The position numbers were made by a program, and so were the translations under genes. A stretch of DNA of 64,000 nt from Escherichia coli (GTDB lineage: Bacteria > Pseudomonadota > Gammaproteobacteria > Enterobacterales > Enterobacteriaceae). The stretch lies in assembly GCF_011045215.1 (NCBI RefSeq), contig NZ_CP049202.1. One strand, 5' to 3'. Below the pieces are notes generated by a model that ran no database searches, was not told the DNA's origin, and was given only the letters and a program-made list of their open reading frames with translations. This document shows, one piece after another, positions 7,531 through 64,000 of this stretch; position 1 is the first letter of the stretch; every line of letters starts with the position of its first letter.

Positions 7531-7767
7531 TTAATGACTACACCGCTGTCTTTCGCTACAGTTCCCCCTGCAGCGCCGCTGGCAATGCTCTGCTCTTTGC
7601 AGGGCAGACTGTTGCCACTCTGCCCGGGAAGCCATCTGTGCGGCCCGACGCCACGCTCCGGCAGCCTCTCTCCATCGCCCCCTGACCTCCAGTCTGACCG
7701 CCTGACTCCCGGCTTGCTGATAATTCTGGCTCTGCGCATTTCGTGAACTTCGTCTGAGTCCATTCAT
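7531..7767 (-). CDS. hypothetical small basic protein (low confidence; two overlapping frames open here)
   Basis: 78-aa ORF with plausible RBS in GC-rich DNA between hha-like gene and finO. Confidence 0.25.
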   Translation of the reverse strand: MNGLRRSSRNAQSQNYQQAGSQAVRLEVRGRWREAAGAWRRAAQMASRAEWQQSALQRAEHCQRRCRGNCSERQRCSH

Positions 7768-26504: not shown

Positions 26505-28379
26505 TTACAGTCCTGCCTGTTTCAGCTGGTCAGCAATCTGCTCTTTCACTTTCTGCGTCAGAACACCACTGTCCGGGATTTTCTGGTTATTCATCAGGTC
26601 TTCGTAGAAGTTAGTGAAATCCAGTCTGTCGAACTGAATTTTCTGCAGCTCATCAACCGTAATCCCCCGACAGTCAGGATGCTTCGCACTGCCAAAACTG
26701 ATACGCAACTGACCGTTGCGCCCCTGCTGCTGGACTATCTGCGCCAGCTTCGAATCAAACTGACAGTAGCTGCGTTTTTTCTCCAGACAGACGCCCAGCA
26801 CTTTCTTCGAACAGAACTCCCCGACGCTGACGGTCAGTTTGTTTGATTTTTCTTTAGCCAGGGCTTTTTCATCACTGCTGCATTTGGCCAGCCCGATATC
26901 CTGTCCCCAGCCGCTGTCCTTACAGCAGTTGCTGTATCCGGCTGCTGCCTTCTTACAAAATTTCGCCTGACCGGTGAAAGCACGGACATCCACCCCGTTC
27001 AGCGCCGCAATATCCTTACCTGCAGCGGCCAGTGCCGCCAGCTGAGAAACAGCTTCGGCAAAATCATTACTCTGCCCGCTCTGAGCCTTATCGCATTCGC
27101 CATCGAGACAGAAGACGTCTCCCCCACAGAGCATCACTTTCCCGGATGTTTTTGACTCACAGGAGTACGTGGCATATTCATGCAGACAGGCACCTTCTTC
27201 GGAGTAAAAGGCGCACTGGTGTGACACCAGGGTACAGGCTGGATTGTCGGTGTAGGTCTGACAGGTTCCCTTGTCTGCTGACTGTGTGACATACGTGTCC
27301 CGGTATGCCCAGCAGCTCTGGTACATGCTGTATGACTGACCGTCTTTCACCAGCGTCCTGTTCCCGCCAGCCTCCGTACATTCTGTTTTTGTCAGTTTCC
27401 CCAGCTCCTTGCTGAACGGGCAGCTTTCAGACCAGACAACATACGGGGTGTACGAGGCTTTTTTTACCCTGACAACCAGACGCAGCTTCATTGCCGTATG
27501 ACGTTTGAATTTTGTATTCCCGACCCGGACGGGGTGAGATGACGTAAAAGCCACACCGGCAGTCAGTGTTTTCTGTACTGGTGTAAATGAGGCATCTGCT
27601 GAGTATTTGGCATTCCAGCTCAGTGGGGTTCCCAGTACTGTAATTGTCATAGGTACACTCTTCTGCAGGTAAGTACGACTCCAGCTGTAATGCGCATCGA
27701 CAATTTCACCGGTAACGGGAGAGGTAATGGAGACAACATACTGACCATTCACTTCACGTGCAGGTAGCTGACTCATTTCATACTCCAGCGTCCGGGTTTC
27801 CCATGTGGTACTCCCCTGCAGCTCCATACGGGCAGTTCGTGTGCAGTACTGCTCCACCTGTAAATCCCTCTCACAGGTATAATTCGTGTATTCACTCCGG
27901 CTAATCTCCTGCGCACTGCACTGCTGCCCGGTGTTTCCCACAATGCTGTCAGCCCGGTTCACCACATCCCTGTCGGTCTGGATAAACGGTGCATCCGGTG
28001 AAAGAATGTCTTTCGGCTTGTTCATGAATGACTCTGTGATGGTTTTTCCGGTTTCACCGGTCGCCCATTCCGTGGTGCCGTCATTTTTCAGGCCGCCATC
28101 CCCGCCGGCAGTCACGCCACCGTAATATTTTGTCTCGTCCGGATTCGCGTTATAGCCGGGGATACTCTCCTGTGGCTTAAAGCCCTGAATACTGCTGCTT
28201 CCCTGTCCTTTGATCTGGTGAGCAAAATCAGAGCCGGCCCGGTAATCACTGTTGCTGTCAGCAAACACAGAAAAGCTCAGGAAAAAAACAATTGCACAAA
28301 GATTGCACGGCTTTACGGAATAATTAAAATTCAGAGATCTGAAAAAGGTATTTATCTTTTCTTTCATAACCTGAACCAT
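26505..28379 (-). CDS. traN: TraN outer-membrane mating-pair stabilisation protein
   Basis: 624 aa, signal peptide, cysteine-rich C-terminal half. Confidence 0.85.
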   Translation of the reverse strand: MVQVMKEKINTFFRSLNFNYSVKPCNLCAIVFFLSFSVFADSNSDYRAGSDFAHQIKGQGSSSIQGFKPQESIPGYNANPDETKYYGGVTAGGDGGLKNDGTTEWATGETGKTITESFMNKPKDILSPDAPFIQTDRDVVNRADSIVGNTGQQCSAQEISRSEYTNYTCERDLQVEQYCTRTARMELQGSTTWETRTLEYEMSQLPAREVNGQYVVSITSPVTGEIVDAHYSWSRTYLQKSVPMTITVLGTPLSWNAKYSADASFTPVQKTLTAGVAFTSSHPVRVGNTKFKRHTAMKLRLVVRVKKASYTPYVVWSESCPFSKELGKLTKTECTEAGGNRTLVKDGQSYSMYQSCWAYRDTYVTQSADKGTCQTYTDNPACTLVSHQCAFYSEEGACLHEYATYSCESKTSGKVMLCGGDVFCLDGECDKAQSGQSNDFAEAVSQLAALAAAGKDIAALNGVDVRAFTGQAKFCKKAAAGYSNCCKDSGWGQDIGLAKCSSDEKALAKEKSNKLTVSVGEFCSKKVLGVCLEKKRSYCQFDSKLAQIVQQQGRNGQLRISFGSAKHPDCRGITVDELQKIQFDRLDFTNFYEDLMNNQKIPDSGVLTQKVKEQIADQLKQAGL

Positions 28380-57686: not shown

Positions 57687-58034
57687 AATAACGCTCCTTC
57701 TCTTACAGAGGGCACCGGGAGGGCACCCCTGTGGTGCCCGTTCCCCGCTGCCTGTGGGCTGTTCACCGCGTCCGGTAACGGGTCAGGCCGACCGTGGAAT
57801 ATCGCAGCCGTCGTCTTTTTGACGGCGAGAATATGCCGCGAAAGCGGCTTGAAGGGCGTTCATCAGAAAAGGGCGACAGGCTGGCGTACACTGTCACCGG
57901 TACCAGCCGGGAGCAGTAAAAGCGCCCGTCCCGTGCCCGCCGGACGCGGGACACTGACCACAGGCAGCGTTCCTGCCGCGCCGCGTCAGCCGGCGCAGTA
58001 AAAAGAGGAGCACGGCGACATCCTTTGTCGGAAA

Positions 58035-58062
58035 AGAAACGGGCGGTTGCCCGCCCGTCTCC
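58035..58062 (-). terminator. rho-independent terminator-like hairpin after the 323-aa ORF
   Basis: GGGCGG-GCAA-CCGCCC then U-rich run on the minus strand. Confidence 0.45.
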
Positions 58063-58070
58063 GTCATACT

Positions 58071-58997
58071 TCATCCGCCATAATGCGCCACATTGTCGAC
58101 TATCCACGCAGGTCCGGTGACTTCCGGCAGCTCATCGTCATCTGTCGGGGAAGAGCATTCCAGTTCCCCCCACAGCACATCAACGAGCTCTCCGCGCTCA
58201 TACAACTGCCAGCCACAGAAATTGCAGCCCTGTTCGGCGTACCAGTGCTCCAGCGTGCAGCCGAAACGGCGGCTTAATTCTGCAACAACGTTGCTTTCCG
58301 GCTGACACCACGGCGTGTCGAAATCCACCTGAATGAAGTTGTCTCCCTGACGGCTGATATTCACCTCATACCTCACAGGCCACTTCACGCCATACTGTTC
58401 CGTATACCAGTGATACGCAGAAGGAACACCGTTCAGAACACCACCGTTAAAGCCATTCACTTCAACATCCAGGCGGGTGGGCAGAACCGTCAGCAGGTCA
58501 AACGGCATGGTTTTTTCCGGCAGTACATTGTCACACAGACGGTTCCACCACACCGATACATCCTCGTTACTCCAGAAGCCACACCAGTCACCTCTTTTGG
58601 CGGTGAAATGCACGGTGATGGTTTCTCTGACCTCATCCGGTAATCCTTCCCAGCGACGCTGGCCAGTACCACTCTGCAGCCAGAGTTCATGCAGCATCAG
58701 GCAGTTTTGCTCATCCAGCAGTACACCGTCCTGCAGGTATGTCAGCCAGCGGGTGAACGCGATATTCTCCGGCGATACAACACCACGTCCGGCAGCCGTC
58801 AGTCCGGGGCACGGTTCAAACTGCACATCTTCAGTGGTCTGCAGAAGTCCGGCACTTCCGGCCAGAAATAGCTGAATACCTTCATTTGTGGCGCGGCGAT
58901 AAAGCGGTATGACTGCACCGCTGGCCAGTCGTTTAATCTCAGCGATCTGTGCCGGTTCACCAGAAAAATACATACGATTCGAGCACCAGTTTAGCAT
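58071..58997 (-). CDS. leading-region hypothetical protein (about 309 aa)
   Basis: W-rich ORF with its own upstream hairpin and downstream terminator. Confidence 0.55.
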   Translation of the reverse strand: MLNWCSNRMYFSGEPAQIAEIKRLASGAVIPLYRRATNEGIQLFLAGSAGLLQTTEDVQFEPCPGLTAAGRGVVSPENIAFTRWLTYLQDGVLLDEQNCLMLHELWLQSGTGQRRWEGLPDEVRETITVHFTAKRGDWCGFWSNEDVSVWWNRLCDNVLPEKTMPFDLLTVLPTRLDVEVNGFNGGVLNGVPSAYHWYTEQYGVKWPVRYEVNISRQGDNFIQVDFDTPWCQPESNVVAELSRRFGCTLEHWYAEQGCNFCGWQLYERGELVDVLWGELECSSPTDDDELPEVTGPAWIVDNVAHYGG

Positions 58998-59019
58998 GGG
59001 AATTCTCCTCTCACATGCG

Positions 59020-59195
59020 GCCTCCATCAGGCCGTGCCGCACCTGTAACCGGGCGACCGCATACGAATGCAGGTGCGGCCCCGAAGCCGCAGCGCGTGGA
59101 GGAGGAACGACGAAACGTGACCGGGTGAGGAGGCCTGCGACAGCGACACACTTGCATCGGATGCAGCCCGGTTAACGTGCCGGCACGGCCTGGGT
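59020..59195. promoter_or_regulatory. long imperfect inverted repeat (candidate single-strand promoter)
   Basis: arms CAGGCCGTGCCGCACCTG and GTGCCGGCACGGCCTGG with nested inner arms, about 25 bp upstream of the 58997 start. Confidence 0.4.
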
Positions 59196-59351
59196 AACCA
59201 GGTATTTTGTCCACAGAACCGTGCACAAAATGCTGTGGATAAGCTGGACACAACAGTCCACAGCAGGCATACAGCCACACTCTCAGAGAATTGAGCGTTT
59301 TTTAGTCACAATAATGACATTTGACTGTGTGTGGATTCAGTTATTAGAATA

Positions 59352-59367
59352 CTGTATATACATACAG
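59352..59367. promoter_or_regulatory. LexA (SOS) box
   Basis: CTGTATATACATACAG fits CTGT-N8-ACAG, 24 bp upstream of the impC-like start. Confidence 0.75.
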
Positions 59368-59390
59368 CAAAAGAAAAGGGAGATGAGAAC

Positions 59391-59639
59391 ATGATCCGCA
59401 TTGAAATTCTTTTCGACCACCAGAGCACAAAAAACCTCAAATCAGGCACACTTCAGGCGCTACAGAATGAAATCGAACAACGTCTGAAACCACACTACCC
59501 GGAAATCTGGCTACGTATAGACCAGGGCAGCGCCCCGTCTGTATCTGTCACTGGAGCCCGCAACGACAAGGATAAAGAACGTATCCAGTCTCTGCTGGAA
59601 GAAATCTGGCAGGACGACAGCTGGCTGCCCGCAGCATGA
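59391..59639 (+). CDS. impC: DinI-like protein (ImpC-type)
   Basis: 82 aa from ATG with GGGAG RBS; DinI-like sequence; first gene of an SOS operon. Confidence 0.7.
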   Translation: MIRIEILFDHQSTKNLKSGTLQALQNEIEQRLKPHYPEIWLRIDQGSAPSVSVTGARNDKDKERIQSLLEEIWQDDSWLPAA

Positions 59640-60073
59640 GTACCGTTTATCACCGTCCGGCTGACCCTTCAGGCGATGACAGTTACGTGCGACCGTTGTT
59701 TGCCGATCGTTGCCAGGCCGGTTTTCCTTCGCCTGCCACTGATTATGCTGAGCAGGAACTGGATCTGAACAGCTATTGCATCAGCAGACCTGCAGCCACC
59801 TTCTTTCTGCGCGCCAGCGGTGAATCGATGAACCAGTCTGGCGTGCAGAATGGTGATCTGCTGGTAGTGGACAGGGCCGAAAAACCACAACACGGGGACA
59901 TCGTTATCGCTGAGATCGACGGTGAGTTCACCGTCAAACGACTGCTGTTGCGCCCACGCCCGGCACTGGAGCCGGTTTCAGACAGCCCGGAGTTCCGCAC
60001 ACTGTATCCGGAAAACATCTGTATTTTTGGTATTGTCACTCACGTGATACACAGGACGCGGGAGTTACGCTGA
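59636..60073 (+). CDS. impA: UmuD-like protein (ImpA-type)
   Basis: 145 aa with LexA/UmuD-like peptidase region (...GESMNQSGVQNGDLLVVDR...). Confidence 0.85.
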   Translation: MSTVYHRPADPSGDDSYVRPLFADRCQAGFPSPATDYAEQELDLNSYCISRPAATFFLRASGESMNQSGVQNGDLLVVDRAEKPQHGDIVIAEIDGEFTVKRLLLRPRPALEPVSDSPEFRTLYPENICIFGIVTHVIHRTRELR

Positions 60074-61343
60074 TGTTTGCACTGGCTGATATCAACAGTT
60101 TCTACGCCTCATGTGAAAAAGTTTTCCGCCCGAACCTTCGCAACGAACCGGTCATCGTACTCAGCAATAACGATGGCTGTGTGATCGCGCGCAGCCCGGA
60201 GGCAAAAGCCCTTGGCATCAGAATGGGGCAGCTCTGGTTTCAGGTGAGACAAATGCGCCTGGAGAAGAAAATACATGTATTTTCCAGCAATTATGCGCTG
60301 TACCACAGCATGAGCCAACGGGTTATGGCTGTTCTGGAGTCGCTTTCTCCCGCAGTTGAGCCCTACTCAATTGATGAAATGTTCATTGATTTGCGGGGGA
60401 TAAATCATTGCATCTCTCCGGAGGTTTTTGGTCATCAGCTCAGGGAACAGGTAAAGAGCTGGACAGGACTCACCATGGGGGTGGGCATTGCGCCTACAAA
60501 AACGCTGGCTAAAAGTGCACAGTGGGCAACAAAGCAATGGCCACAGTTTTCCGGTGTGGTCGCGCTGACGGCAGAAAACCGTAATCGGAGCTTGAAGCTA
60601 CTGGGGCTGCAGCCAGTTGGTGAGGTCTGGGGAGTAGGACGCAAACTGACGGAAAAGCTGAATGCGCTGGGTATTAACACAGCACTGCAACTGGCGCAGG
60701 CTAACACGGCATTCATCCGGAAAAACTTCAGCGTCATTCTTGAGCGTACGGTACGCGAACTCAACGGCGAGTCCAGCATATCCCTGGAAGAAGCACCACC
60801 GGCAAAACAGCAGATTGTCTGTAGTCGCAGTTTTGGTGAACGAATCACAGACAAAGATGCCATGCACCAGGCTGTTGTTCAGTATGCAGAGCGGGCCGCA
60901 GAGAAACTACGTGGGGAGCGTCAGTATTGTCGGCAGGTGACGACATTTGTACGGACATCCCCCTTTGCAGTAAAAGAACCCTGTTACAGCAATGCCGCTG
61001 TGGAAAAGCTTTCATTGCCACACAGGACAGCCGGGACATTATTGCCGCCGCATGCAGAGCCTTAAACCATGTCTGGCGTGAAGGGTACCGCTATATGAAG
61101 GCAGGAGTCATGCTGGCTGATTTCACACCATCGGGTATAGCGCAGCCGGGATTATTTGATGAAATCCAGCCCCGTAAAAACAGTGAAAAGTTAATGAAAA
61201 CACTCGATGAACTGAACCAGTCGGGAAAAGGGAAAGTGTGGTTTGCGGGGCGAGGAACCGCCCCTGAATGGCAAATGAAACGGGAAATGCTATCGCCTTC
61301 GTATACAACACAATGGACTGAGATCCCCATTGCTTCATTCTGA
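60073..61343 (+). pseudogene. impB: UmuC-like Y-family DNA polymerase (ImpB-type) with frameshift near 61010-61020
   Basis: 330-aa ORF (MFALADINSFYASCEKVFRP...) continues as a 138-aa ORF in another frame; together about 423 codons. Confidence 0.75.
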
Positions 61344-61347
61344 TATA

Positions 61348-61776
61348 TCAGAATAATTTTTTCATTTTAAGACGCACATCATTCATTGCCTCCTGCACCG
61401 AATCAGTAGCAGAAGGAGGCATTTTTTCAACAGATTGCGAAGCACCGAGTTCAGTCAACACAGCTCTGATATCGGCCTGAGAAGGCTTCCATCCAGTCGT
61501 CTGACTGAGTAAGGTTACAACCTGATCTGCTGAAAACTCCTCGCTCAAAATGGCTGTCAGCAATACAGGCAGGCGAGGATCAAGTTGGTGTAACGCCATT
61601 CCAGAAATAAATGCATTCCGGAACAGCTCACCACGCTCAGAACGCGGAACGGACTCTATCGCTTCCAAAGTTTGAAAGTCTGCAGCTTTTTCCGGATGCA
61701 GATAAAGTGTGTATTTTTTCCTTTTCCGTTCATCGTCCACAATATTACTCCTCTTTGAAAGCCGCGATAGCTTCAA
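61348..61776 (-). CDS. parR: ParR/StbB-like partition adaptor
   Basis: 142-aa ORF directly downstream of the ParM-like gene. Confidence 0.6.
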   Translation of the reverse strand: MKLSRLSKRSNIVDDERKRKKYTLYLHPEKAADFQTLEAIESVPRSERGELFRNAFISGMALHQLDPRLPVLLTAILSEEFSADQVVTLLSQTTGWKPSQADIRAVLTELGASQSVEKMPPSATDSVQEAMNDVRLKMKKLF

Positions 61777-62716
61777 CCAGTGCTGTCTGTGGCGACTCCA
61801 TCATCACTACTTTTTGCCCAAGATGGTGCCATGCCGTTTTTATCGAATCATAGATCAACGGGGCCCCACCACCGACAACATAAACACGATTCACATGATG
61901 GAAATCACCGAGCTCATTGACTACTTGCTCCCCCAAACTGGCAATAGCCCCCTCAATGGTATTAAGGACCAGATCAGTTTTTGTTTCGTCATTTATAACC
62001 TGCCGAACAAAGTCCGGGTCATTACGACGTTTAATCAATTCATCTGCAACGAGGAAACTGGTATCACTGGATGCCATGCGCAATGCACTCATTGCAGCTT
62101 TCGTAACTGAAGACACACCAATGCCAGAATTACCATGAATGGCACTTACAGAGTCAAATTGACCAACGATAACACCAACATCAAGCGTAGTGCCGCCAAT
62201 ATCAACTACCAGCGATTTTTCGAACTGACCAACTTTATCCACGACCAGACGAGAAAACACAGCTGGCAATGATTCAGGCATCACATCAACGTGTTCAATG
62301 GTGAAAACATCGCCTTTATTAAGACGAATCGGCCTCATTAAATTCTCAATTTTACGCTGAATGTTGAGTTCATTTTTTTGACACTCTTTCGTATAGAACT
62401 CACTGATAGGCAAAGTCACAGTCAATGATACAGGCTGAGGCGCTAATCCACTATTCAGTAAAGCGTGATGCACAGCTAACAGGTTAACATCCGTATATTG
62501 ATACTCAATATGAGTCGTAAGAATAGATTGGTTGCTAACTTCATCATACGTGTATTTTTTACCATCCAGTTCATAGTTAAATGTCTGGCGAATTCCTAAC
62601 CCGTCAACCTTCCATCCATGACGAAATGAGTTTTGCGACAACGACTTACAGATTTTTCCATTATCATTCCATGCCAACTTGATTGTTGTTGAACCATCAT
62701 CGCAGTATACGTTCAT
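61745..62716 (-). CDS. parM: ParM/StbA actin-like partition ATPase
   Basis: 323 aa; DDGSTTIKL, DIGGTTLD and VVGGGA motifs as in R1 ParM. Confidence 0.85.
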   Translation of the reverse strand: MNVYCDDGSTTIKLAWNDNGKICKSLSQNSFRHGWKVDGLGIRQTFNYELDGKKYTYDEVSNQSILTTHIEYQYTDVNLLAVHHALLNSGLAPQPVSLTVTLPISEFYTKECQKNELNIQRKIENLMRPIRLNKGDVFTIEHVDVMPESLPAVFSRLVVDKVGQFEKSLVVDIGGTTLDVGVIVGQFDSVSAIHGNSGIGVSSVTKAAMSALRMASSDTSFLVADELIKRRNDPDFVRQVINDETKTDLVLNTIEGAIASLGEQVVNELGDFHHVNRVYVVGGGAPLIYDSIKTAWHHLGQKVVMMESPQTALVEAIAAFKEE

Positions 62717-62719
62717 CTA

Positions 62720-62940
62720 TAGCCCCTTAAATACTCAATCTGAGTAAATCATTGTTTCTAGTTGCAAGGTAATACTCAATTTGAGCACTATCATAGTTAT
62801 GAAATCACAAAACACAAGTATTATTTATTACATCACATAACGCACTTCATATTTCACACTTCATAAATATGAACACATATTGACACCTCAGGTTACCGTG
62901 TCAAAATATCATCATACTTCACATATCACATTTATGAGGT
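62720..62940. promoter_or_regulatory. centromere-like repeat region between the divergent par operons
   Basis: AT-rich, iterated AATACTCAAT and TCACA/TTCATA motifs. Confidence 0.45.
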
Positions 62941-62944
62941 TGCA

Positions 62945-63589
62945 ATGATTACTGTAGTTGGTGGGAACAAAGGTGGTTCAGGGAAAACTACCATTGCATC
63001 AAACCTGGCTATTGCTCTCGCAAATAAAGGAAGGGAAGTCTGCCTGTTAAACGGAGATCTACAACGAACAGCCGCAAAACATCATGCGGAACGAGAAGCT
63101 GCAGGACTGTTACCAGCAATAACCCTTGTTGAGAAATTTGATAACCTGACACAAACACTACAGGCTCTGAATGAAAAGTTCGATGATGTAATAGTGGATG
63201 TCGCAGGAAGAAACTCAAAGGAATTCATAACGAGTGGAGTTGTCGCACATCAAATAATTGCGCCACTACAGTGTTCTCAACCAGATCTGGATACTCTTAC
63301 AGAACTAGAACAACAGATAGACGCAATGCGTAACCTTAACCCGGAACTTAAGGTTTATTGTTTACAAAGTATGGCAACAACCAATCCGGTTTTGAGGGGA
63401 AATGAGAGAAAAGAATTCCTTGAATATCTTGAAGAATTCCCAACAATTCAAGTCCTTGATTCAGTTATTTGTTTCAGAAAAGTCTATCGCGATTGCATGA
63501 GCAACGGCACCGGTGTAGTAGAAACGAACAATACAGCAGCCAAAGCAGAAATTGAACATTTAATGAATGAGGTATTTGGCCCATGGTGA
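62945..63589 (+). CDS. parA: ParA-family small Walker ATPase (type Ib partition)
   Basis: 214 aa; deviant Walker A GGNKGGSGKTT. Confidence 0.85.
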   Translation: MITVVGGNKGGSGKTTIASNLAIALANKGREVCLLNGDLQRTAAKHHAEREAAGLLPAITLVEKFDNLTQTLQALNEKFDDVIVDVAGRNSKEFITSGVVAHQIIAPLQCSQPDLDTLTELEQQIDAMRNLNPELKVYCLQSMATTNPVLRGNERKEFLEYLEEFPTIQVLDSVICFRKVYRDCMSNGTGVVETNNTAAKAEIEHLMNEVFGPW

Positions 63590-63858
63590 AGAAACCCAGC
63601 CAGCAAGCATTAAACAGAGCTGCAGTTACGGTAGAACAAGCAGAGGCTCTGGCTCAGCGCCTTGCGGATAAACCATACGGCGCGCCGGAAAAACCCGAAC
63701 CAGAAAAACAATGTCGGACGACAATCTCTCTTGGTGAAAGCATGCTTGTCACAATAGAAGATCTGGCATTGAGGAATAAACGCAATGGTAAAGATCCAAA
63801 AAATGTAAGTGCCATCGTCAGAGTAGCCCTTGAGCAATACTTAAAAACACTAACGTAA
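63583..63858 (+). CDS. parB: small ParB/ParG-like ribbon-helix-helix protein
   Basis: 91-aa ORF translationally coupled to parA; basic; followed by repeats at 63860-64000. Confidence 0.6.
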   Translation: MVKKPSQQALNRAAVTVEQAEALAQRLADKPYGAPEKPEPEKQCRTTISLGESMLVTIEDLALRNKRNGKDPKNVSAIVRVALEQYLKTLT

Positions 63859-64000
63859 TAATCAATAAGTTATTACTTATGAAATCACACTTGTGAATTC
63901 ATACTTTTTAAGCACCCTTGCATACAAGAGATCACATATTGCAGTGGTCTCTTTTTTTACAGAATAAATCACAATTCATAATTATGATTTATGAATTATG

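Follow-up and report, generated by a model that had tools for sequence, protein, structure and literature searches.

Chromosomal umuDC, which encodes Pol V, mucAB of pKM101 and samAB form one family of mutagenesis operons (NF002955 for the UmuC-like and NF007621 for the UmuD-like component), and all of them are repressed by LexA. Activity of the umuDC/mucAB type requires RecA-mediated cleavage of the UmuD-like subunit. A related operon, impCAB, is conserved on I-complex plasmids, where it is under negative selection and is toxic when overexpressed (PMC10286972). Its regulation has been described for plasmid pTF2, in which a LexA box of sequence TACTGTATATACATACAGCA has a heterology index of 1.60 and a weaker box, AACTGAATCCACACACAGTC, lies at -48 with an index of 13.49; in an SOS-constitutive strain carrying this plasmid, ImpC was increased 21-fold and ImpA 9-fold (PMC12211044).

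The imp operon and its promoter

The window, that is, the whole 64,000-nt stretch of DNA analysed here, is part of an E. coli F-type conjugative plasmid with an IncFIB/FII backbone. Its closest match is pWY517IncF (NZ_CP076260, also IncFIB/FII), at 99.1% across positions 39001-64000 and 100% across impB. Three tightly packed, co-oriented genes on the + strand of the window, impC, impA and impB, constitute the known impCAB operon for SOS mutagenesis, with its umuDC-like and DinI-like genes. impC (59391-59639) has an intact ORF for a DinI-like protein of 82 aa, and impA (59636-60073), likewise intact, encodes a UmuD-like S24 autoprotease subunit of 145 aa. The ATG start codon of impB overlaps the stop codon of impA (TGATG). 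impB itself (60073-61343, 1271 nt) is assigned as a pseudogene of a umuC-like Y-family polymerase on the basis of its ORFs, profile searches, alignments and the PGAP label of its relatives. The downstream neighbours of the operon on this plasmid are partition genes of the ParM/StbB type.

A consensus scan places a sigma-70-type promoter (TTGACT, an 18-nt spacer and TAGAAT, with 10 of 12 consensus matches) at 59321-59350 on the + strand, and the same promoter is present in intact relatives. Directly 3' of its -10 element (59345-59350) lies a strong LexA box, TACTGTATATACATACAGCA (59350-59369, + strand), which was found by pattern matching and equals the pTF2 impCAB box. A weak second box, GACTGTGTGTGGATTCAGTT (59323-59342, + strand), overlaps the -35 element and is the reverse complement of the pTF2 sequence AACTGAATCCACACACAGTC. 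In alignments, the promoter and both boxes are unchanged relative to those of intact operons. Because promoter and operator are identical to those of the SOS-induced impCAB of pTF2, we strongly infer that LexA control persists on this plasmid. The earlier note, made from the letters of the window, had described the LexA box and impA as intact, and both are indeed present, the box with its CTGT-N8-ACAG core at 59352-59367 and impA as an uninterrupted ORF. Two more matches to CTGT-N8-ACAG occur in the window, at 7546-7561 and 28255-28270. The total of three compares with 0.74 expected by chance, and 5 of 100 shuffled sequences reached three.

The frameshift in impB

The first ORF of impB (ORF1) spans 60073-61065 and encodes 330 aa. 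The rest of the similarity to UmuC is found in the -1 frame, where an open stretch (ORF2) extends over 60927-61343. In an NCBIfam profile search with the UmuC model NF002955 (422 positions), ORF1 covers profile positions 1-317 with 581.1 bits (cut-off 431) and ORF2 covers positions 310-421 with a further 185.5 bits. Since these ranges meet, the two pieces abut and nothing but the frame has been lost. All expected Pfam domains (IMS, IMS_HHH, IMS_C and DUF4113) are present across the two pieces, the little-finger domain IMS_C being likewise split between ORF1 and ORF2 and DUF4113 being located in ORF2. The out-of-frame 3' remnant (61020-61343, + strand) comprises the second half of the little finger (PF11799, profile positions 64-107), the QPGLF motif and DUF4113 (PF13438); it is also recognized by NF002955, and in BLASTP it aligns with residues 317-423 of an intact allele (L014). 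A structure sequence search returned only DinB/Dpo4-type homologues and no UmuC structure, so that our domain mapping rests on profile coordinates.

The nature of the lesion was defined by alignment to two intact reference alleles, one of 1272 nt from a Shigella IncFIB plasmid (WP_011251349) and one of 1275 nt, the impB of pS13. Both alignments show one single-base gap, at 61017/61018, and this gap is the sole frame-breaking difference from either allele. The intact alleles read TTG CCC ACA CAG, whereas the plasmid analysed here reads TTG CC- ACA CAG, with the remaining CC at 61018-61019 on the + strand. One C has thus been lost at codon 316, which still encodes proline, and residue 317 is the first aberrant one. 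Translation then runs through 14 aberrant residues (HRTAGTLLPPHAEP) to a premature TAA stop at 61063-61065 (+ strand), giving a predicted product of 316 native and 14 aberrant residues. When one C is put back in silico, the result is an ORF of 423 aa with no internal stop. The frame change that had been noticed near 61010-61020 is therefore a single-base gap, borne out by the alignment to UmuC-family relatives as one base missing relative to intact impB alleles, and the remark that no homopolymer lies at the junction is essentially right, the ancestral run being merely CCC. We hold with high confidence that impB is a genuine pseudogene created by the loss of one C from CCC at codon 316.

As a result of the frameshift, the reading frame no longer includes QPGLF, a putative clamp-binding motif, the DUF4113 domain at the C-terminus or one half of the little finger. 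The single continuous frame of about 422 residues that serves as a criterion of the UmuC family is broken in impB at codon 316. By a second criterion, one frame should join the catalytic core to the clamp motif and the C-terminal domain; here the coding sequence of QPGLF and DUF4113 lies 3' of the lesion and in the -1 frame alone. Judged by its profile matches, the locus belongs to the UmuC/ImpB/MucB family as a pseudogene, without standing as a functional gene. ORF1 does contain the sequences MFALADINSFYA and SIDEMFIDL in its translation, which hold the counterparts of D6, D101 and E102, the catalytic acidic residues of UmuC. Residual or altered activity of the truncated ImpB is formally conceivable, since the catalytic N-terminal 316 residues (MFALADINSFYA, SIDEMF) are kept. 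Given the loss of frame and the neutral evolution of impB among carriers of the deletion described below, the polymerase subunit is almost certainly inactive.

Frequency and origin of the frameshift allele

An exact copy of the 67-nt junction around the lesion (60984-61050) is present in 273 of the 3477 PLSDB plasmids that hold the segment, and in 297 of the 2858 RefSeq complete-genome E. coli records with it. The other copies, about 90%, retain the additional C, so that their junction measures 68 nt in the record. Complete intact copies are annotated as 'Y-family DNA polymerase', while the PGAP label 'umuC, pseudo, frameshifted' is found in pUTI89, pWY517IncF, pSK1144, pRM10466-1 and others. 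The impB frameshift is real, heritable, widespread, already annotated in RefSeq and not special to this plasmid, and the literature searched contained no paper on this specific frameshift.

All ten carriers sampled have 60690A, 60930T and 61012T in common; the deletion thus arose once. The nearest intact alleles, L014 and L015 from I-complex plasmids, also have 61012T, but with CCC at the lesion site. Carriers are found in at least four flanking contexts. In the first, which includes this plasmid and pUTI89, the operon lies beside ParM/StbB-type partition genes, and in the second it lies beside a ParA-type partition gene (carriers L010 and L012). The third is represented by a carrier with an IncI-type impB 3' end and a gene length of 1274 nt (L011), and the fourth by one in which impB is truncated by IS21 (L009, NZ_CP030770). 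Since L011 joins the frameshift with the other type of 3' end, it points to recombination within impB. After its single origin on the 60690A/60930T/61012T haplotype, the allele would have been carried into these flanking contexts by transfer of plasmids and by recombination.

The last ~55 nt of impB (61290-61343) are mosaic, with two very different 3' ends that correspond to the 1272-nt and 1275-nt genes, and the type of 3' end co-varies with the type of the convergent downstream partition gene. Of 3596 matching plasmids, about 1300 hold only a partial impB, and most of the sampled ones are IncF. The partial copy is very often the same unannotated 468-nt piece, corresponding to gene positions 750-1217 (equivalent to 60822-61289 in the window), which in pECAZ146_1 is located between RepFIB and IS1. 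An alternative right end of ISEcp1 inside impB has been reported to mobilise a 9.3-kb blaTEM/blaCTX-M unit (bioRxiv 10.1101/2020.05.07.081380); this end may or may not explain the 468-nt fragment.

Selection on impB

We classed the variable sites of 17 alleles, 10 from carriers and 7 intact, leaving out the mosaic 3' end past 61285. For variants of impB segregating within each group, the ratio of nonsynonymous to synonymous changes (N:S) is 14:5 in carriers and 5:21 in intact alleles (Fisher p = 6e-4), to be read as values from a small sample in which variants were polarised by the minority allele, recombination was ignored and one sub-lineage (L010, L012, L013) supplies many of the carrier changes. 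With a neutral N fraction of 0.70-0.76, carriers fit the neutral expectation (binomial p = 1.0), whereas intact alleles depart from it (p = 1e-7), and the latter are thus under purifying selection. To read all five impB changes of the lineage as nonsynonymous proved too strong, since F118V at 60424 is a shared multi-allelic polymorphism. D21N, P54L, I173S and R191K are the other changes specific to the lineage.

Carriers of the pUTI89 group have unrelated sequence in place of the promoter and of the left LexA half-box, so that homology to the window starts only at 59356; the replacement adjoins ISEc53 and a ClbS/DfsB gene. LexA control of the operon and its expression from a promoter of its own have therefore probably been lost in this sub-lineage. 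For the plasmid analysed here, the decay of its own copy would follow from its lineage, as its own promoter is intact and it shows no second lesion.

The frequency of the allele raises the question of whether the frameshift was positively selected, in the sense that plasmid or host gains from shedding a plasmid-borne mutator polymerase that is costly or toxic. Growth is severely impaired by overexpression of impCAB (PMC10286972), about 8-10% of segment-bearing plasmids now have the allele, in at least four contexts that include the successful pUTI89-like plasmids, and more than 1000 other plasmids, most of the sampled ones IncF, hold impB fragments only. However, hitch-hiking on successful plasmid backbones accounts for the frequency equally well, and intact operons are the large majority and are under purifying selection. 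We therefore consider positive selection rather unlikely. Hitch-hiking on successful F-type plasmids is sufficient for the spread of the allele, with selection against a costly operon also possible.

impC and impA

ImpA scores 140.8 bits against NF007621 (cut-off 110) and 83.4 bits against PF00717. Its translation shows a CQA/GFPSPA region and the motifs GESM and FTVKRL, which, by analogy with UmuD, are the apparent cleavage region and the serine and the lysine, respectively, of the Ser/Lys dyad. ImpC obtains 67.3 bits with PF06183 (cut-off 24.2) and only 41.8 bits with the DinI equivalog model NF007893 (cut-off 111). By these profile scores, ImpC is a DinI-like protein and no equivalog of DinI, and its counterparts in relatives bear the annotation 'DinI-like family protein'. 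At 59419 and 59513, impC has R10H and a synonymous L41 change, both private to this plasmid: neither occurs in the 16 other alleles examined, including that of the otherwise identical pWY517IncF.

The N:S ratio of impC and impA together is 11:4 in carriers and 0:4 in intact operons (p = 0.018), counted in the same few sequences, with the same polarisation by minority allele and with recombination ignored. Six ImpA protein accessions occur among the 10 carriers, compared with two among 7 intact operons, and a single ImpA, WP_000109071, is common to almost all intact operons sampled. These substitution patterns suggest that the whole operon lost constraint once impB was broken, and that 'intact' probably does not mean 'maintained'. 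Both genes appear to lose constraint after the loss of impB, an argument against their having an important function when the polymerase is absent. The earlier note had also proposed that, if the frameshift is real, the operon is inactive while still LexA-regulated. As a reading of the sequence this is supported, with the qualification that, although the impA and impC ORFs are intact, the constraint on them is relaxed in carriers.

A stronger role for the two genes can be envisaged. The plasmid might carry a polymerase-free, LexA-controlled impC-impA SOS module, in which ImpC conceivably tunes RecA filaments or ImpA/ImpA' acts on the host's Pol V or Pol IV; or the loss of impB might have been selected as an anti-mutator adaptation of successful F-type plasmids. 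That one of these two scenarios holds seems to us improbable. The narrower proposal that impC and impA are kept since they work without ImpB, for example with ImpC modulating RecA filaments or ImpA' acting on chromosomal UmuC or DinB, would make the operon remodelled rather than dead. It draws on the intact impC and impA ORFs, promoter and LexA boxes of this plasmid, on the apparent cleavage site and Ser/Lys motifs that ImpA keeps, and on the finding that no other plasmid proteins of pTF2 respond to SOS induction as strongly as ImpC and ImpA (PMC12211044). Against this, the relaxed N:S ratio and the greater diversity of ImpA types in carriers are at odds with retention for function, and in the pUTI89 sub-lineage the promoter is gone altogether. 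We judge this proposal decidedly improbable.

Recoding and sequencing error

A full-length ImpB could in principle be restored by programmed -1 ribosomal frameshifting or by transcriptional slippage of the dnaX type, or the two pieces could be functional as such. The -1 frame is open from 60927 and overlaps ORF1 by 139 nt, so that any -1 slip in this interval would yield a nearly full-length protein, and a run of five C residues is present at 60959. However, a scan of the whole ORF1 frame for X XXY YYZ heptamers found none, and Rfam identified no RNA element in 58000-64000. The split halves the little-finger domain, and ORF2 has no convincing start codon or Shine-Dalgarno sequence past the junction.

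The codons after the lesion speak against recoding as well. When read in the original frame, impB 3' of the lesion has an N:S ratio of 4:0 in carriers and 1:9 in intact alleles. The four carrier changes are A330V, P359T, Q383L and T396S, and P359T falls within QPGLF. Carriers moreover tolerate additional lesions. One group (L002, NZ_CP027311) has a second deletion of 5 bp (TGATT) at 61118-61122, and in L009 (at 890-1911 of that record segment) the frameshifted impB is also truncated by IS21 after about 61094. The length of the L002-type gene, 1266 nt, is a multiple of three and might be taken as a rescue of the frame; the stop at 61063 precedes the deletion at 61118, which thus represents further decay. 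Recoding, or function of two separate pieces, is in our view very improbable. With the neutral N:S ratio, the secondary lesions and the lack of both a heptamer and an Rfam element in these scans, impB of the carriers is to be regarded, on its substitution pattern, as a decaying pseudogene that evolves neutrally and is not recoded.

Single-base indels are frequent among assembly errors, but it is scarcely credible that the gene is really intact and lacks the C only through faulty sequencing or assembly, because the identical 67-nt junction recurs in many laboratories' data and on many platforms (273 PLSDB plasmids, 297 RefSeq records), the lesion site is merely a CC/CCC run with no long homopolymer, and frameshift carriers have linked marker substitutions in common.

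Discussion

Our analysis suggests the following course of events for the imp operon of this plasmid. LexA would still repress the operon through the intact promoter and operator, and upon SOS induction the transcript would give rise to ImpC, ImpA and a 330-aa ImpB stub. The stub is predicted to keep the palm, fingers and thumb and half of the little finger. As it ends partway through the little finger, and thus before the clamp-binding motif and the C-terminal domain, it would not form a working Pol V-like enzyme. This prediction follows from the domain content of the stub and from neutral evolution, and a loss of translesion activity is inferred from both. After the lesion had occurred, the whole operon would have drifted neutrally and gained further lesions. 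The locus is thus probably a decaying remnant of an SOS mutagenesis operon that is still LexA-repressed.

This plasmid, and about 1 in 10 plasmids with this impB segment, should not be counted as contributing an extra error-prone polymerase. The allele bears on estimates of the SOS-driven mutagenic potential of E. coli plasmids, and otherwise matters for annotation. As a lineage marker it is convenient for one group of F-type plasmids, pUTI89-like ones among them, and it also provides a small natural experiment on the constraint acting on impC and impA after the loss of impB.

Compared with chromosomal umuDC, mucAB and samAB, the operon described here has an extra, DinI-like first gene and a broken polymerase gene. 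The impCAB operons of IncI1/I-complex plasmids (TP110, ColIb-P9, pTF2, pMS7163B) and of the Shigella flexneri virulence plasmid share the three genes and their order as well as the TGATG overlap between impA and impB. These intact operons match the one described here exactly in promoter and LexA boxes, and nucleotide identity is 97-99%; the differences are the lost C in codon 316 of impB, which truncates the polymerase subunit, and the F-type (IncFIB/FII) backbone on which the operon resides. The same single-base deletion is present in the umuC pseudogenes of pUTI89 (NC_007941, UTI89_RS25475; 99.4% identity in impB) and of pWY517IncF (NZ_CP076260), the impB of which is 100% identical. In contrast to the copies of the pUTI89 type, which are without the promoter and the left LexA half-box, the plasmid analysed here keeps both.
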